DNA of 64,000 nucleotides from Escherichia coli (GTDB lineage Bacteria; Pseudomonadota; Gammaproteobacteria; Enterobacterales; Enterobacteriaceae). The stretch is from assembly GCF_003334785.1 (NCBI RefSeq), contig NZ_QOWV01000002.1; one strand, given 5' to 3'. Under the pieces are notes generated by a model. It saw only the letters and a program-made list of their open reading frames with translations, was not told the origin of the DNA and did not search any database. Of this stretch, positions 28,026-57,354 are shown piece after piece; position 1 is the stretch's first letter; every line of letters begins with the position of its first letter. The position numbers and the translations under genes were made by a program.

Positions 28026-28051
28026 ATGCAATCGGTTACGCTCTGTATAAT
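28026..28051 (+). promoter_or_regulatory. guaBA promoter core: -10 TATAAT with GC-rich discriminator, preceded by a PurR-box-like sequence GCAATCGGTTACG
   Basis: TATAAT about 45 nt upstream of the guaB ATG followed by GCCGCGG; the upstream element matches 9 of 12 positions of the GCAAACGTTTGC PurR core. Confidence 0.45.
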
Positions 28052-28094: not shown

Positions 28095-29561
28095 ATGCTA
28101 CGTATCGCTAAAGAAGCTCTGACGTTTGACGACGTTCTCCTCGTTCCTGCTCACTCTACCGTTCTGCCGAATACTGCTGACCTCAGCACCCAGCTGACGA
28201 AAACTATTCGTCTGAATATCCCTATGCTTTCCGCAGCAATGGATACCGTAACGGAAGCGCGCCTGGCTATTGCTCTGGCTCAGGAAGGCGGTATCGGCTT
28301 TATCCACAAAAACATGTCCATTGAACGCCAGGCAGAAGAAGTTCGCCGTGTGAAAAAACACGAATCTGGTGTGGTGACTGATCCGCAGACTGTTCTGCCA
28401 ACCACGACGCTGCGCGAAGTGAAAGAACTGACCGAGCGTAACGGTTTTGCGGGCTATCCGGTCGTTACCGAAGAAAACGAACTGGTGGGTATTATCACCG
28501 GTCGTGACGTGCGTTTTGTTACCGACCTGAACCAGCCGGTTAGCGTTTACATGACGCCGAAAGAGCGTCTGGTCACCGTGCGTGAAGGTGAAGCCCGTGA
28601 AGTGGTGCTGGCAAAAATGCACGAAAAACGCGTTGAAAAAGCGCTGGTGGTTGATGACGAATTCCACCTGATCGGCATGATCACCGTGAAAGACTTCCAG
28701 AAAGCGGAACGTAAACCGAACGCCTGTAAAGACGAGCAAGGCCGTCTGCGTGTTGGTGCAGCGGTTGGCGCAGGTGCGGGTAACGAAGAGCGTGTTGACG
28801 CGCTGGTTGCCGCAGGCGTTGACGTTCTGCTGATCGACTCCTCCCACGGTCACTCAGAAGGTGTACTGCAACGTATCCGTGAAACCCGTGCTAAATATCC
28901 GGATCTGCAAATTATCGGCGGCAACGTGGCAACAGCTGCAGGTGCACGCGCTCTGGCAGAAGCTGGTTGCAGTGCGGTTAAAGTCGGCATTGGCCCTGGC
29001 TCTATCTGTACAACTCGTATCGTGACTGGCGTCGGTGTTCCGCAGATTACCGCTGTTGCTGACGCAGTAGAAGCCCTGGAAGGCACCGGTATTCCGGTTA
29101 TCGCTGATGGCGGTATTCGCTTCTCCGGCGACATCGCCAAAGCTATCGCCGCTGGCGCAAGCGCGGTGATGGTAGGTTCCATGCTGGCGGGTACTGAAGA
29201 ATCTCCGGGTGAAATCGAACTCTACCAGGGCCGTTCTTACAAATCTTACCGTGGTATGGGTTCCCTGGGCGCGATGTCCAAAGGTTCCTCTGACCGTTAT
29301 TTCCAGAGCGATAACGCTGCCGACAAACTGGTGCCGGAAGGTATCGAAGGTCGCGTAGCCTATAAAGGTCGCCTGAAAGAGATCATTCACCAGCAGATGG
29401 GCGGCCTGCGCTCCTGTATGGGTCTGACCGGCTGTGGTACTATCGACGAACTGCGTACTAAAGCGGAGTTTGTACGTATCAGCGGTGCGGGCATTCAGGA
29501 AAGCCACGTTCACGACGTGACCATTACTAAAGAGTCCCCGAACTACCGTCTGGGCTCCTGA
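28095..29561 (+). CDS. guaB: IMP dehydrogenase
   Basis: Track ORF 28026-29561 trimmed to ATG at 28095 ([21 protein letters not shown]...), 488 aa; catalytic Cys loop [11 protein letters not shown] and CBS domains. Confidence 0.96.
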
Positions 29562-29569
29562 TTCTCTTC

Positions 29570-29600
29570 GCCCGACTTCATGTCGGGCGATTTATATTAT
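29570..29600 (+). terminator. hairpin between guaB and guaA (possible partial terminator or processing site)
   Basis: CGCCCGAC-ttcat-GTCGGGCG followed by ATTTATATTAT. Confidence 0.4.
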
Positions 29601-29629
29601 CTGTTTCACTTGCCTCGGAATAAGCGTCA

Positions 29630-31207
29630 ATGACGGAAAACATTCATAAGCATCGCATCCTCATTCTGGACTTCGGTTCTCAGTACACTCAACTGGTTGC
29701 GCGCCGCGTGCGTGAGCTGGGTGTTTACTGCGAACTGTGGGCGTGGGATGTGACAGAAGCACAAATTCGTGACTTCAATCCAAGCGGCATTATTCTTTCC
29801 GGCGGCCCGGAAAGTACTACTGAAGAAAACAGTCCGCGTGCGCCGCAGTATGTCTTTGAAGCAGGCGTACCGGTATTCGGCGTTTGCTATGGCATGCAGA
29901 CCATGGCAATGCAGTTGGGCGGTCACGTTGAAGCCTCTAACGAACGTGAATTTGGCTACGCGCAGGTTGAAGTCGTAAACGACAGCGCACTGGTTCGCGG
30001 TATCGAAGATGCGCTGACCGCAGACGGTAAACCGCTGCTCGATGTCTGGATGAGCCACGGCGATAAAGTTACCGCTATTCCGTCCGACTTCATCACCGTA
30101 GCCAGCACCGAAAGCTGCCCGTTTGCCATTATGGCTAACGAAGAAAAACGCTTCTATGGCGTACAGTTCCACCCGGAAGTGACTCACACCCGCCAGGGTA
30201 TGCGCATGCTGGAGCGTTTTGTGCGTGATATCTGCCAGTGTGAAGCCCTGTGGACGCCAGCGAAAATTATCGACGATGCTGTAGCTCGCATCCGCGAGCA
30301 GGTAGGCGACGATAAAGTCATCCTCGGCCTCTCTGGTGGTGTGGATTCCTCCGTAACCGCAATGCTGCTGCACCGCGCTATCGGTAAAAACCTGACTTGC
30401 GTATTCGTCGACAACGGCCTGCTGCGCCTCAACGAAGCAGAGCAGGTTCTGGATATGTTTGGCGATCACTTTGGTCTTAACATTGTTCACGTACCGGCAG
30501 AAGATCGCTTCCTGTCAGCGCTGGCTGGCGAAAACGATCCGGAAGCAAAACGTAAAATCATCGGTCGCGTTTTCGTTGAAGTATTCGATGAAGAAGCGCT
30601 GAAACTGGAAGACGTGAAGTGGCTGGCGCAGGGCACCATCTACCCTGACGTTATCGAATCTGCGGCGTCTGCAACCGGTAAAGCACACGTCATCAAATCT
30701 CACCACAACGTGGGCGGCCTGCCGAAAGAGATGAAGATGGGCCTGGTTGAACCGCTGAAAGAGCTGTTCAAAGACGAAGTGCGTAAGATTGGTCTGGAGC
30801 TGGGCCTGCCGTACGACATGCTGTACCGTCACCCGTTCCCGGGACCAGGCCTTGGCGTTCGTGTTCTGGGTGAAGTGAAGAAAGAGTACTGTGACCTGCT
30901 GCGCCGTGCTGACGCCATCTTCATTGAAGAACTGCGTAAAGCGGACCTGTACGACAAAGTCAGCCAGGCGTTCACTGTGTTCCTGCCGGTACGTTCCGTT
31001 GGCGTAATGGGCGATGGTCGTAAGTATGACTGGGTTGTCTCTCTGCGTGCTGTCGAAACCATCGACTTTATGACCGCACACTGGGCGCATCTGCCGTACG
31101 ATTTCCTCGGTCGCGTTTCCAACCGCATTATCAATGAAGTGAACGGTATTTCCCGCGTGGTGTATGACATCAGCGGCAAGCCGCCAGCTACCATTGAGTG
31201 GGAATGA
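29630..31207 (+). CDS. guaA: GMP synthase (glutamine-hydrolysing)
   Basis: 525-aa ORF; GATase Cys (GVCYGMQ) and ATP-PPase motif SGGVDSS. Confidence 0.96.
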
Positions 31208-39292: not shown

Positions 39293-39930
39293 TTACTCGT
39301 CGGCAGCGTAGCCCTGCGGCGGCAGACGTTGACCATCCAGCCACGCGGCGTTTTCGTGCATTTTCAGACGACCATCGGCAAACCAGCTAATCACCAGTGG
39401 ATAAATGGCGTGTTCCTGGGTTTGCACGCGGGCGGTGATGTCATCTTCCGAATCACCAGCAAATACCGGGACTTTCGCCTGTAAAATAACCGGGCCACCG
39501 TCCAGTTCATCGGTGACGAAATGCACCGATGTACCGTGCTCTTCATCGCCATTTTCCAGCGCCTGACGATGGGTGTGTAATCCGGGATATTTCGGCAGCA
39601 GAGAAGGGTGAATGTTCAGCAAACGCCCGGCATAGTGGGAGACAAACGCCGGGCTGAGAATGCGCATAAAACCAGCCAGCACGACCACATCGGGTGCGTA
39701 CATGTCGATTTCATGAATCAACTCCCGGTCATAGGCTTCACGACTGTCAAACGCGCTGGCGATGAGCGTATGCGTTGCAATACCCGCCTGGCGGGCGCGT
39801 TCAAGGCCGAACGCGTCGGCCTTATTGCTGAAAACTGCCCGTACGGTGCCTTTAATTTTGTTGGTTTTACAGGCGTCAATAATTGCCTGTAAATTACTTC
39901 CGTTGCCGGAAATAAGCACCACAATATTCA

Positions 39931-39931
<1 letters not shown>
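39293..39931 (-). CDS. purN: phosphoribosylglycinamide formyltransferase 1
   Basis: 212-aa ORF MNIVVLISGNGSNLQAIIDA...; start overlaps the purM stop (TAATG). Confidence 0.95.
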
Positions 39932-40986
<1,055 letters not shown>

Positions 40987-41030
40987 TTACTTGCGGTAGA
41001 AAAATAAAATTCGGCGCAATTCTAACAGGG

Positions 41031-41047
41031 AAAGCAAACGTTTGCGA
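41031..41047. promoter_or_regulatory. PurR operator (purine box) in the purMN control region
   Basis: Palindrome AAGCAAACGTTTGCGAG containing the canonical GCAAACGTTTGC core, about 70 nt upstream of the purM start. Confidence 0.8.
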
Positions 41048-41222
41048 GACTGCTTTACACAACCTTTTTGCACGTCTTTTCCCCAGGCGCGCGGCGAAAG
41101 AAGACTTGTGCCAGGGTAAAGGTTAGTTTTCGGATGGAATAATCTTCTTTCATAACCATCTGAATATAAAATAACTTTATCTCAAACCGTTATCATTTTG
41201 ACTAAAGTCAACGAAAAGAATA

Positions 41223-41265
41223 TTGCCGCCTTGAAGAAAGGAGGTATAATCCGTCGATTTTTTTT
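41223..41265 (+). promoter_or_regulatory. upp promoter (TTGCCG-N16-TATAAT) with initially transcribed T8 tract (UTP-sensitive reiterative transcription)
   Basis: TATAAT at about 41245-41250 followed by CCGTCGATTTTTTTTG; known regulatory architecture of upp. Confidence 0.7.
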
Positions 41266-41292: not shown

Positions 41293-41919
41293 ATGAAGAT
41301 CGTGGAAGTCAAACACCCACTCGTCAAACACAAGCTGGGACTGATGCGTGAGCAAGATATCAGCACCAAGCGCTTTCGCGAACTCGCTTCCGAAGTGGGT
41401 AGCCTGCTGACTTACGAAGCGACCGCCGACCTCGAAACGGAAAAAGTAACTATCGAAGGCTGGAACGGCCCGGTAGAAATCGACCAGATCAAAGGTAAGA
41501 AAATTACCGTTGTGCCAATTCTGCGTGCGGGTCTTGGTATGATGGACGGTGTGCTGGAAAACGTTCCGAGCGCGCGCATCAGCGTTGTCGGTATGTACCG
41601 TAATGAAGAAACGCTGGAGCCGGTACCGTACTTCCAGAAACTGGTTTCTAACATCGATGAGCGTATGGCGCTGATCGTTGACCCAATGCTGGCAACCGGT
41701 GGTTCCGTTATCGCGACCATCGACCTGCTGAAAAAAGCGGGCTGCAGCAGCATCAAAGTTCTGGTGCTGGTAGCTGCGCCAGAAGGTATCGCTGCGCTGG
41801 AAAAAGCGCACCCGGACGTCGAACTGTATACCGCATCGATTGATCAGGGACTGAACGAGCACGGATACATTATTCCGGGCCTCGGCGATGCCGGTGACAA
41901 AATCTTTGGTACGAAATAA
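41293..41919 (+). CDS. upp: uracil phosphoribosyltransferase
   Basis: Track ORF 41266-41919 trimmed to ATG at 41293 ([16 protein letters not shown]...), 208 aa. Confidence 0.95.
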
Positions 41920-42004: not shown

Positions 42005-43294
42005 ATGACGCGCCGTGCTATCGGGGTGAGTGAAAGACCGCCACTTTTACAGACAATCCCGCTTAGTTTGCAACATTTGTTCGCCATGTTTGGTGCAACC
42101 GTCCTGGTGCCCGTCTTATTTCATATTAACCCGGCGACTGTACTGTTATTTAACGGTATTGGAACGCTGCTGTATCTCTTCATCTGTAAAGGGAAAATTC
42201 CGGCTTATCTTGGTTCCAGCTTTGCCTTTATTTCACCGGTATTGTTACTGTTGCCGTTAGGGTATGAAGTCGCGCTGGGCGGCTTTATTATGTGCGGCGT
42301 GCTGTTCTGCCTGGTTTCTTTTATCGTGAAGAAAGCGGGGACCGGCTGGCTGGACGTGCTGTTTCCACCTGCGGCAATGGGCGCAATCGTTGCCGTCATC
42401 GGTCTGGAGCTGGCGGGCGTAGCTGCCGGTATGGCGGGTTTACTCCCGGCTGAAGGGCAAACGCCAGACTCCAAAACCATCATCATCTCTATTACCACCC
42501 TGGCGGTCACGGTTTTAGGTTCCGTGCTGTTTCGTGGTTTCCTGGCAATTATCCCGATTTTAATTGGCGTGCTGGTGGGGTACGCGCTCTCTTTCGCAAT
42601 GGGAATTGTCGATACCACGCCGATTATTAATGCTCACTGGTTTGCGCTGCCAACCCTCTATACGCCGCGCTTCGAGTGGTTTGCCATTCTGACTATTCTG
42701 CCAGCGGCGTTAGTGGTTATTGCCGAACACGTAGGGCACCTGGTAGTAACGGCTAATATCGTCAAAAAAGATCTGCTGCGCGATCCAGGTCTGCACCGTT
42801 CGATGTTTGCTAATGGCTTGTCGACCGTGATTTCCGGCTTCTTTGGCTCTACGCCAAATACTACTTACGGAGAAAACATTGGCGTGATGGCGATCACCCG
42901 TGTTTACAGTACCTGGGTTATCGGCGGGGCGGCGATTTTCGCTATCCTGCTTTCCTGCGTCGGTAAACTGGCTGCCGCTATCCAGATGATCCCATTGCCG
43001 GTGATGGGCGGCGTTTCGCTGCTGCTTTATGGTGTCATCGGTGCTTCCGGTATTCGTGTTTTGATCGAATCGAAAGTGGATTACAACAAAGCACAGAACC
43101 TGATCCTGACTTCCGTGATTTTGATCATCGGCGTCAGTGGCGCGAAGGTAAACATCGGCGCGGCGGAGTTAAAAGGTATGGCGCTGGCGACCATCGTCGG
43201 TATCGGCTTAAGTTTGATCTTCAAACTGATCAGTGTGCTGCGCCCTGAAGAAGTGGTGCTGGACGCAGAAGACGCGGATATAACAGACAAATAA
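42005..43294 (+). CDS. uraA: uracil:H+ symporter UraA (NCS2 family)
   Basis: Track ORF 41963-43294 trimmed to ATG at 42005 ([16 protein letters not shown]...), 429 aa; polytopic membrane protein. Confidence 0.94.
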
Positions 43295-43388: not shown

Positions 43389-44090
43389 CTGAACACACCG
43401 GCACAGCTCTCTTTGCCACTTTATCTTCCTGACGACGAAACCTTTGCAAGTTTCTGGCCGGGGGATAACTCCTCTTTACTGGCCGCGCTGCAAAACGTGC
43501 TGCGTCAGGAACATAGCGGTTACATCTATCTCTGGGCACGCGAAGGCGCGGGGCGCAGCCATCTGCTGCACGCGGCTTGCGCGGAATTGTCGCTGCGTGG
43601 CGATGCGGTGGGCTATGTCCCGCTGGATAAACGCACCTGGTTTGTTCCGGAAGTGCTCGACGGTATGGAGCATTTGTCGCTGGTCTGTATCGACAACATT
43701 GAGTGTATTGCAGGCGATGAGTTGTGGGAGATGGCGATTTTCGATCTCTACAATCGAATTCTGGAATCGGGCAAAACACGGTTGTTGATCACCGGCGATC
43801 GTCCACCGCGGCAGTTGAATCTGGGATTACCGGATCTCGCGTCGCGACTCGACTGGGGGCAGATCTACAAATTGCAGCCACTTTCTGATGAAGATAAGTT
43901 GCAGGCGCTACAGTTACGCGCGCGTTTGCGTGGTTTTGAACTGCCGGAAGATGTGGGGCGTTTCTTGCTGAAGCGGCTCGACAGAGAAATGCGCACGCTA
44001 TTTATGACGTTGGATCAGTTGGATCGTGCGTCGATTACCGCGCAACGTAAGCTGACCATTCCGTTTGTGAAAGAAATTCTGAAGTTGTAG
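43389..44090 (+). CDS. hda: DnaA-inactivating AAA+ protein Hda (non-AUG CUG start)
   Basis: Track ORF 43344-44090; mature Hda is 233 aa beginning at the CTG codon that encodes L in ...VSLNTPAQ ([19 protein letters not shown]...); the start assignment rests on prior knowledge, not on the sequence alone. Confidence 0.8.
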
Positions 44091-46283: not shown

Positions 46284-47345
46284 ATGCTCGAAATGTTGAT
46301 GCAATGGTATCGCCGCCGTTTTAGCGACCCGGAAGCGATTGCCTTGCTGGTTATTTTAGTTGCCGGATTTGGCATTATCTTTTTCTTTAGTGGCCTGCTT
46401 GCTCCGTTGCTGGTGGCTATTGTGCTGGCCTATTTGCTGGAATGGCCAACCGTGCGTCTGCAATCTATTGGCTGCTCCCGCCGCTGGGCGACGTCGATTG
46501 TATTGGTGGTTTTCGTCGGTATATTGCTACTGATGGCGTTCGTGGTACTGCCTATCGCCTGGCAACAGGGCATCTACTTAATCCGCGATATGCCGGGGAT
46601 GCTCAATAAGCTTTCTGACTTTGCCGCCACGTTGCCGCGCCGCTATCCGGCGTTAATGGACGCGGGCATTATTGATGCAATGGCCGAAAATATGCGCAGT
46701 CGGATGCTGACCATGGGCGATTCGGTGGTGAAAATTTCCCTCGCCTCGCTGGTCGGTTTGCTGACCATAGCCGTCTATCTGGTGCTGGTGCCATTGATGG
46801 TCTTCTTCCTGCTGAAAGACAAAGAGCAGATGCTGAACGCCGTTCGCCGGGTGCTGCCGCGTAACCGTGGGCTGGCAGGACAGGTGTGGAAGGAGATGAA
46901 TCAACAAATCACCAACTATATCCGCGGCAAAGTGCTGGAGATGATCGTGGTGGGGATCGCCACCTGGCTGGGGTTCTTGCTCTTCGGGCTGAACTATTCG
47001 CTGCTGCTGGCAGTGCTGGTCGGCTTCTCGGTTCTTATTCCGTACATTGGCGCATTTGTGGTGACCATTCCGGTGGTTGGCGTGGCGCTATTCCAGTTTG
47101 GCGCAGGTACTGAATTCTGGAGCTGCTTCGCGGTGTATCTGATTATTCAGGCGCTGGACGGCAACCTGTTAGTGCCGGTGTTGTTCTCCGAAGCGGTTAA
47201 CCTGCATCCGCTGGTGATTATTTTATCGGTGGTGATCTTCGGTGGTTTGTGGGGATTCTGGGGCGTATTCTTCGCCATTCCGTTGGCGACGCTGATCAAA
47301 GCCGTGATTCATGCCTGGCCCGATGGGCAAATCGCGCAAGAATAA
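46284..47345 (+). CDS. perM: AI-2E family transporter PerM (YfgO)
   Basis: 353-aa polytopic membrane ORF. Confidence 0.88.
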   Translation: MLEMLMQWYRRRFSDPEAIALLVILVAGFGIIFFFSGLLAPLLVAIVLAYLLEWPTVRLQSIGCSRRWATSIVLVVFVGILLLMAFVVLPIAWQQGIYLIRDMPGMLNKLSDFAATLPRRYPALMDAGIIDAMAENMRSRMLTMGDSVVKISLASLVGLLTIAVYLVLVPLMVFFLLKDKEQMLNAVRRVLPRNRGLAGQVWKEMNQQITNYIRGKVLEMIVVGIATWLGFLLFGLNYSLLLAVLVGFSVLIPYIGAFVVTIPVVGVALFQFGAGTEFWSCFAVYLIIQALDGNLLVPVLFSEAVNLHPLVIILSVVIFGGLWGFWGVFFAIPLATLIKAVIHAWPDGQIAQE

Positions 47346-55914: not shown

Positions 55915-57354
55915 TTACTGCAACCAGGTCGCGGCGATTACGCTGGAAATCAGCGACATCACAATCAGTACAATCAACACCAGGCGCATTGATCCTGGCA
56001 GCGGTGCGGCATCGGCGACGGCCTCGCTCGGTTTGCCAGGCACAACGCGACCAAACCAGCGAATAAACCAGGCGAAACTGGCGACCGATTCAATCATCAG
56101 AAGAATCATGGCGGGCAGCAGGATCCAGTACTCCACTGACAACGCAAAACCGGCAGCAAACAGCGGGAATTTACTGAAGAAGCCGTTGAACGGCGGCACG
56201 CCGGTAATCGCCAGCGCTGCCACGCAGAAACCCACGCCTGGCAACGGCAGGGTGTGCAATACGCCACGCAGACGCGGCAACAAGCGCGTGCCGCAGCTGT
56301 AACTCAGCGCACCTGCTACAAGGAAAAACAGGCTTTTAGCGAACGCGTGGTTGACGATGTAGGCGATGCTGCCCTCCAGCGCCAGCCGCGAGCCGAAGAT
56401 GGAGAGCGACAAGCCGAAGAACATCCAGCCAAGTTGAGTGATGGTCGACCAGGCTAGCAACCGCTTCATATCCTGCTGTGGCAAATACATCAGAAAGCCA
56501 TAAAGAATGGTGACCAGTGCCATGACCATGCCAACGCCGCCAATCACATGCGGGATATTGCCGCCGTCGATAATAGCGCGGGCAAAAATGTAAACGCCCA
56601 CTTTCACCATCGATGCGGCGTGGAGATAGGCGCTGATCGGTGTTGGCGCTTCCATTGCGTCCGGTAGCCACGCTTGCATCGGTAGCTGGGCCGATTTCCC
56701 CCACGCGGCAAACAGGATGCCGCCATAAACCAGATAACGTGCGTCGCCGTGTAACTCGCTCATCGCGCTAAGCGCAAACGTTCCGGTCTGCAAAAACAGC
56801 GTGGCGGCGGCAAGATACAACCCCAACGAGCCGATATGAGTGATAAGTAACGCTTTTAGTGCTGAACGCTGCGCTTTATCGCTCTGGTAATAACTGATCA
56901 ACGCCCAGGAGCAGCCGCCTGTAATTTCAAAAAACAACAACTGACCGAGCAGCGTCGAGGAGAGTACCAGTCCCGCCATCGCGCCGATAAACACCAGTAA
57001 AAATGCGTAATAACGATTCGTGCCGTTATGCGGGTGTTCGCGATTTTTATCCGTCAGATAACCCGTGGAGTAGATCGTGACCAGCAAACCGAGAAACACC
57101 ACCACAAACAGAATCAGCGTACTCACGCGATCAATGACCAGGCCAAACAACGCCACATCCCCCACGTTGACCAACGTCAACGTGACGGCAACTTTATCGG
57201 CCTGATAAAACGCGGAGATCAGTGACAACATGCACAGCGTGGTCAGCGCGGCGAACAAAACCCCCCATTCGGCGGCCCGACGTTGTGGCGAAAACGAAAC
57301 GACCAGTGCGCCGATAAAAGGCAGCAATAACGTCGTCAGAGCAAGATTTTCCAT
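55915..57354 (-). CDS. hyfD: hydrogenase-4 membrane subunit HyfD (NuoM-like)
   Basis: 479-aa polytopic ORF. Confidence 0.92.
   Translation of the reverse strand: MENLALTTLLLPFIGALVVSFSPQRRAAEWGVLFAALTTLCMLSLISAFYQADKVAVTLTLVNVGDVALFGLVIDRVSTLILFVVVFLGLLVTIYSTGYLTDKNREHPHNGTNRYYAFLLVFIGAMAGLVLSSTLLGQLLFFEITGGCSWALISYYQSDKAQRSALKALLITHIGSLGLYLAAATLFLQTGTFALSAMSELHGDARYLVYGGILFAAWGKSAQLPMQAWLPDAMEAPTPISAYLHAASMVKVGVYIFARAIIDGGNIPHVIGGVGMVMALVTILYGFLMYLPQQDMKRLLAWSTITQLGWMFFGLSLSIFGSRLALEGSIAYIVNHAFAKSLFFLVAGALSYSCGTRLLPRLRGVLHTLPLPGVGFCVAALAITGVPPFNGFFSKFPLFAAGFALSVEYWILLPAMILLMIESVASFAWFIRWFGRVVPGKPSEAVADAAPLPGSMRLVLIVLIVMSLISSVIAATWLQ

Follow-up and report, generated by a model that had tools for sequence, protein, structure and literature searches.

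We are highly confident that the palindrome upstream of purM in the 64,000-nucleotide stretch of Escherichia coli DNA analyzed here (the window) is the PurR operator of the purMN operon, that a poorer box in the guaBA core promoter would act alike but more weakly, and that the divergent upp-uraA genes are not controlled from the purM box. The purMN and guaBA PurR sites are already known, and that of purMN was mapped by experiment long ago. An initial annotation, made from the sequence, had placed three operons of the window, upp only tentatively, under purine control; this stands for purMN and guaBA, but upp has to be removed from the list.

Over the segment 40850-41350, the window shares 100% identity with E. 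coli K-12 MG1655, and this segment is found in 5425 of 5426 complete E. coli genomes. The gene layout in Table 1 follows the annotation of MG1655 and shows upp and uraA on the plus strand, divergent from purMN, as the initial annotation had stated; xseA lies further to the left, as do guaB and guaA. The purM box falls in the 324-bp region between purM and upp. In E. coli and E. albertii this spacer measures 324 nt, which exceeds by about 100 nt its length in most other genera that have the two genes side by side (211-277 nt, with a few cases of 328-442 nt).

Table 1. Operators, promoter elements and genes discussed in the text (positions within the window)
Feature	Position	Strand	Basis and remarks
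PurR operator (pur box) of the purMN promoter	41032-41047	minus	TCGCAAACGTTTGCTT; perfect 12-bp palindrome core at 41034-41045
Predicted extended -10 of the purMN promoter (TGT-TAGAAT)	41019-41027	minus	Sequence and conserved block; 7 nt downstream of the operator
purM	39931-40968	minus	GTG start at 40968; PGAP annotation of the identical MG1655 segment; ORF list
purN	39293-39931	minus	Operon with purM under the operator (39293-40968); PGAP, ORF list
upp promoter TTGCCG-16-TATAAT with initially transcribed CCGTCGA-T8	41223-41265 (promoter 41223-41250; -10 41245-41250)	plus	Promoter scan; separate regulatory unit, outside the PurR site
upp	41293-41919	plus	ATG at 41293; PGAP annotation
uraA	42005-43294	plus	PGAP annotation
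Weaker PurR box in the guaBA core promoter	28026-28041	minus	GCGTAACCGATTGCAT (plus strand ATGCAATCGGTTACGC); ChIP-chip motif
Putative guaB -10 hexamer TATAAT	28046-28051	plus	4 nt downstream of the box; invariant in 14/14 aligned loci
guaB	28095-29561	plus	ATG at 28095; PGAP, ORF list; downstream of the weaker box
guaA	29630-31207	plus	With guaB forms the operon 28095-31207; PGAP, ORF list

The palindromic core of the purM box, GCAAACGTTTGC, is present exactly once in the window (41034-41045). Read on the purM strand, the full 16-mer TCGCAAACGTTTGCTT has a central CpG and a single mismatch to the published motif ACGNAAACGTTTGCNT, and a 16-mer consensus search returned it as the only match in the window with at most one mismatch. 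The palindrome had been placed at 41031-41047; it is real, but those coordinates comprise the 16-bp operator plus one extra base. Its distance from the gene had been estimated correctly at about 70 nt, as the box centre (41039.5) lies 71 nt upstream of the purM GTG (40968).

The conserved 7-nt gap between the box and the predicted extended -10 would place the operator over the -35 region and spacer of the purMN promoter, a promoter assignment that draws on both sequence and conservation. A simple sigma-70 scan called the upp promoter and a promoter-like site on the xseA side and called neither the purM nor the guaB promoter, both of which it missed because their -35 hexamers are weak. The geometry proposed for the purM promoter therefore rests on the conserved extended -10. 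The purM transcription start is predicted at about 41010-41012, relative to which the operator centre would fall near -28 to -30.

The conservation of the purM box was analyzed in a comparative set obtained by a Ppk scan, which comprised 80 Enterobacterales loci ranging from Escherichia through Xenorhabdus and Providencia. The box was found in all 63 loci with sequence upstream of purM, 61-114 nt before the start codon and with weight matrix scores of 14.9-18.2. In an alignment of 64 sequences, conservation upstream of purM is concentrated in one main block, CTCGCAAACGTTTGC.T...CTGtTAGAATTG, which consists of the box followed by the extended -10 (TGtTAGAAT) at an invariant spacing of 7 nt; nothing beyond the box is conserved further upstream in this alignment, and only short patches recur near the start codon. 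Within E. coli, the 34 nt that span the box and the -10 are identical in 5422 of 5423 genomes, and the surrounding 501 nt are just 95-99% identical in 1928 genomes.

Published binding data cover this exact sequence. In the PurR ChIP-chip study of Cho 2011 (PMC3159470, Table 1), TCGCAAACGTTTGCTT is the motif of the purM-purN region (2,619,140-2,619,155), within a peak that spans 2,618,847-2,619,484, and occupancy of the box in vivo rises with adenine (log2 enrichment of 2.08 with adenine and 0.98 without). The motif of the guaB-guaA region is GCGTAACCGATTGCAT (2,632,146-2,632,161), with a log2 enrichment of 0.84 that was detected with adenine only and is the weakest in the table (PMC3159470). 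Both pairs of published coordinates map exactly to 41032-41047 and 28026-28041 by one linear transform. As a functional counterpart, deletion of AAACGTTTGCTT from a multicopy clone of the purM-upp intergenic region weakens the protective effect of that clone, which its authors credit to titration of PurR (PMC3266220). Citing papers credit Meng 1990 and He 1990 with PurR-dependent repression of purMN, and in a 2024 review purMN is the operon chosen to illustrate repression by E. coli PurR, whose dimer is said to take hypoxanthine and guanine as corepressors. The proposal of a canonical PurR operator at purMN is thus well founded, since the exact 16-mer is the ChIP-chip site and deletion of the box weakens the effect credited to PurR titration; no observation speaks against this assignment.

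Taken together with its position, these data are consistent with a simple model for the purM box. When hypoxanthine or guanine accumulates, the dimer of PurR, a member of the LacI family, would bind the box. Because the box is predicted to occupy the -35 and spacer region directly upstream of the extended -10, binding would exclude RNA polymerase sterically from the presumptive purMN transcription start, and purM-purN would be repressed. The second box, between the -35 and the -10 of guaBA, would act in the same way but more weakly.

An alternative is that the purM palindrome has no protein-binding role and is either a chance occurrence or an RNA hairpin. Short palindromes do arise by chance, and about 0.08-0.19 matrix matches as good as this one are expected per 64 kb. 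Yet the palindrome is kept in all 63 Enterobacterales loci amid non-coding DNA that is otherwise unconserved, and both the ChIP occupancy and the deletion data concern the exact purM sequence (PMC3159470, PMC3266220). As a gap-free 12-bp palindrome it could form a stem of 4 bp at most. Because both the predicted purM -10 and the upp start (at a distance of about 217 nt) lie downstream of the palindrome, transcription through it is not expected; the hairpin was dropped as a candidate because the palindrome is upstream of both predicted start sites. We give this alternative virtually no credence and continue to regard the palindrome as the operator of purMN.

To compare motif matches with chance, both strands were scanned with a weight matrix derived from 25 published PurR sites, all of which lie outside the window. 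The purM box scores 17.5, second among the distinct sites of the window, and the guaB box scores 14.9, the third. Matches that score at least 17.4 are expected 0.08 times per 64 kb under an independent-base model and 0.19 times in dinucleotide shuffles; for scores of at least 14.8 the expectation is 0.44-0.97. Judged by sequence alone, the purM box is thus a moderately improbable find, which cannot be said of the guaB box. The window as a whole showed no enrichment of consensus matches, either for the 16-mer with at most three mismatches (12 found, 8.55, or about 8.6, expected) or for the 12-mer with at most two (2 found, 5.75 expected), so motif counts alone lend no support to a window-wide purine theme. 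What makes the purM and guaB sites convincing is their position in promoters of purine genes, their conservation and their published binding, not the number of motif matches.

At guaB, the weaker PurR-like sequence pointed out in the initial annotation is present and does overlap the core promoter, but it starts at 28028 rather than 28027: GCAATCGGTTACG occupies 28028-28040, and the box lies 61 nt before the guaB ATG. The box sits between a weak -35 and TATAAT, which we take as the putative guaB -10, in keeping with the published description of this promoter (PMC2885671). It carries three mismatches to the published PurR motif, scores at chance level for a 64-kb window and cannot be called by sequence alone. 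The case for a PurR site here is nevertheless sound, as its 16-mer is the ChIP-chip motif (PMC3159470) and down-regulation of guaB by PurR has been reported, with a putative PurR site overlapping the core promoter (PMC2885671).

Within E. coli, the guaB box is identical in all 5421 matching genomes. Across genera, the position of the box, its GCAA half-site and an invariant central CG are shared by 13 of 14 loci, and the box of Pantoea eucrina, ACGAAATCGATTGCCT, is a much better PurR match (score 19.4). The whole stretch from the -35 to about +20 is conserved, beyond the box alone; conservation of the box is therefore inseparable from that of the promoter and counts as weaker evidence than at purM.

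These features leave room for a reading in which PurR binding is not the main role of the guaB box. On this reading, the box either owes its conservation solely to its place as spacer in a strongly conserved promoter or serves as an operator for a different protein of the LacI family, for example GalR. In its favor are the chance-level score, the extent of the conserved promoter, the ChIP enrichment that is the lowest in the table of Cho 2011 and seen with adenine only, and the fact that the guaB promoter literature still terms the PurR site "putative" (PMC2885671). In addition, the identical 16-mer, ATGCAATCGGTTACGC, appears in a GalR study among the GalR regulatory sites predicted from sequence, where it is assigned to guaB (b2508). 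Nevertheless, the 15 regions bound by GalR in ChIP include neither purM nor guaB, whereas PurR ChIP-chip detects the guaB region and its motif search chooses this very 16-mer. The reported PurR-dependent down-regulation of guaB (PMC2885671) also argues against this reading, as does the pattern of substitutions between genera, which spare the GCAA half-site and the central CG and include the better match of P. eucrina. We consider it unlikely that the guaB box serves mainly something other than PurR and retain it as a weaker PurR site.

The location of the purM box in an intergenic region shared with upp raised the possibility that it is a shared operator through which PurR also represses upp-uraA, and the initial annotation had listed upp as possibly under purine control. 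Two further points speak for such a role: PurR is known from the literature to repress some genes of pyrimidine metabolism and nucleobase transport (codBA, pyrBI, carAB, xanP), and upp and uraA fall together with purine and pyrimidine genes in stress transcriptome meta-analyses. The distances argue otherwise, as the purM box is the PurR box nearest to the upp start region (41256/41257) and its centre lies about 217 nt upstream, far outside the footprint of the polymerase. PurR is not known to have the tetramerisation helix of LacI and is therefore not expected to form loops. A 2024 review describes PurR as a dimer.

The comparative loci separate the two genes. In 20 Enterobacterales loci, from Citrobacter, Enterobacter, Klebsiella, Leclercia, Lelliottia, Kluyvera, Pluralibacter and Pseudocitrobacter, purM and upp are parted by an insertion of 1.8-2.8 kb; the box remains on the purM side, upp has its own GGTATAATCCnGCGATTTTTTT promoter, and no PurR box is found within 250 nt of upp (best scores of at most 13.4, mostly below 10). 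The insertion appears to encode a GH1-type 6-phospho-beta-glucosidase, sometimes with a ROK-type kinase, both named by eye (L004, 6260-7690; L008, 5537-7931). Whether purM is adjacent or not, upp keeps a promoter of the GGTATAATCCnGCGATTTTTTT type in essentially all of the 62 Enterobacterales loci, apart from minor variations. Membership of upp-uraA in the PurR regulon would call for a PurR box retained in or just downstream of the upp promoter, and none is retained there.

The control described for upp is of another kind, namely UTP-sensitive start-site selection with reiterative transcription, and the main text of the PurR regulon paper makes no mention of upp (PMC3159470). A shared operator at the purM box therefore appears highly improbable to us, and the suggestion that upp is under purine control fails on the distance of the box, on the 20 insertion loci that have no replacement box and on the UTP-based control. 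We retain the assignment of the purM box to purMN.

Two other elements were observed upstream of upp and around its start. The -10 and the initially transcribed region, GGTATAATCCnGCGA followed by T7-T9 (41245-41265), are kept, with slight variation, in essentially all 62 loci, and this conserved region fits the published UTP-sensitive control by reiterative transcription, as far as its sequence suggests. An FNR-type palindrome, TTGACTAAAGTCAA, lies at 41198-41211. It is the FNR site identified upstream of upp in PMC3266220, where its centre is given as -61.5; counted from the TATAAT at 41245-41250, it would lie nearer -52.

The top matrix match in the window is neither the purM nor the guaB box but ACGGCAACGATTGCGC, inside uraA (42381-42396, minus strand; score 17.6). 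This 16-mer agrees with the ChIP-bound yieG site at 15 of 16 positions and is unchanged in about 17 loci of Escherichia, Citrobacter, Enterobacter, Kluyvera and related genera. The peptide encoded here, GAIVAV, is invariant, and the synonymous positions of the box vary freely: at three phylogenetic depths, the conservation of the 5-codon window at the box ranked 297/349, 173/351 and 60/346, which shows no excess of synonymous-site conservation. It has no ChIP-chip peak and is about 1 kb outside the purM peak (PMC3159470), and 0.1-0.2 matches of this level are expected by chance per window. The uraA box is probably a chance match.

Were the box a genuine, though weak and lineage-restricted, site of PurR roadblock comparable to the purB operator within its gene, purine-dependent damping of uracil uptake would follow; we judge this very unlikely. 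On the basis of the synonymous-site test and the distance of about 1 kb from the purM ChIP peak, the uraA box was dropped as a functional site. Looping between the purM and uraA boxes, which are 1349 bp apart, was also dropped as a candidate, since PurR is described as a dimer and the uraA box is unconstrained.

The initial annotation had missed a third region of the window with published PurR ChIP binding, yfgO/yfgC (bepA) (Cho 2011, PMC3159470). Its motif, CCGGAAGCGATTGCCT, maps to 46329-46344 on the plus strand, 45 nt inside the yfgO frame and not between genes, where it covers codons 16-21 (DPEAIAL). It scores weakly (13.5), and its conservation does not extend beyond Escherichia; Citrobacter already lacks it. 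PurR-like 16-mers also occur within hda (ACGCGCGCGTTTGCGT, 43916-43931, score 13.5) and hyfD (ACCGGAACGTTTGCGC, 56772-56787, score 14.1), at chance-level scores, of which one or two are expected in each window. When published coordinates are transferred, the strong PurR operator of purC (2,595,794-2,595,809, Cho 2011) lies about 385 nt past position 64000, just beyond the end of the window, which brings to four the published PurR ChIP regions in a neighbourhood of about 37 kb.

The purM box closely resembles the other E. coli pur boxes (among them those of purF, purT, purL, purC, purHD and purEK), which are likewise imperfect 16-bp palindromes with a central CG and GCAA/TTGC half-sites. The operators of the pur regulon, of which purMN is itself a listed member, share the placement over the -35 to -10 region of a purine-biosynthesis promoter, the repressor and the corepressors. 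Relative to the consensus, the purM box has T for A at position 1 and T for G at position 15 and otherwise differs in nothing of substance; its score of 17.5 is below those of purT, purF and purH (23-25) because the outermost positions deviate from the consensus. The intragenic roadblock operators of purB and purR use the same repressor and motif as the purMN and guaBA sites. They differ in that they lie downstream of the start, in the reading frame, and block elongation, whereas the purMN and guaBA sites lie in the promoter and would block initiation. The uraA box is like the purB and purR operators in position only, as it has neither binding evidence nor extra constraint.

Related palindromes are also used by GalR and GalS of the LacI family, whose operators (GTGnAAnCGnTTnCAC) are 16 bp long and likewise centred on CG. 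The half-sites set them apart: those of GalR end in GTG/CAC, those of the purM box read CGCAAA/TTTGC. In Bacillus subtilis and Lactococcus, PurR and the PurBox likewise provide purine-responsive transcriptional control of the same pathway genes. PRPP acts as an effector of that PurR. According to the 2024 review, the protein is not homologous to E. coli PurR and responds to (p)ppGpp; the DNA element and the effectors differ between the two systems.

From these results, we conclude that the purM box gives no grounds for adding upp-uraA to the PurR regulon. For purine regulation itself the analysis holds nothing new, and the purM box serves as a positive control, a real repressor site that was recognised from raw sequence and whose operator and extended -10 stand out as a very clean footprint in the comparative data.
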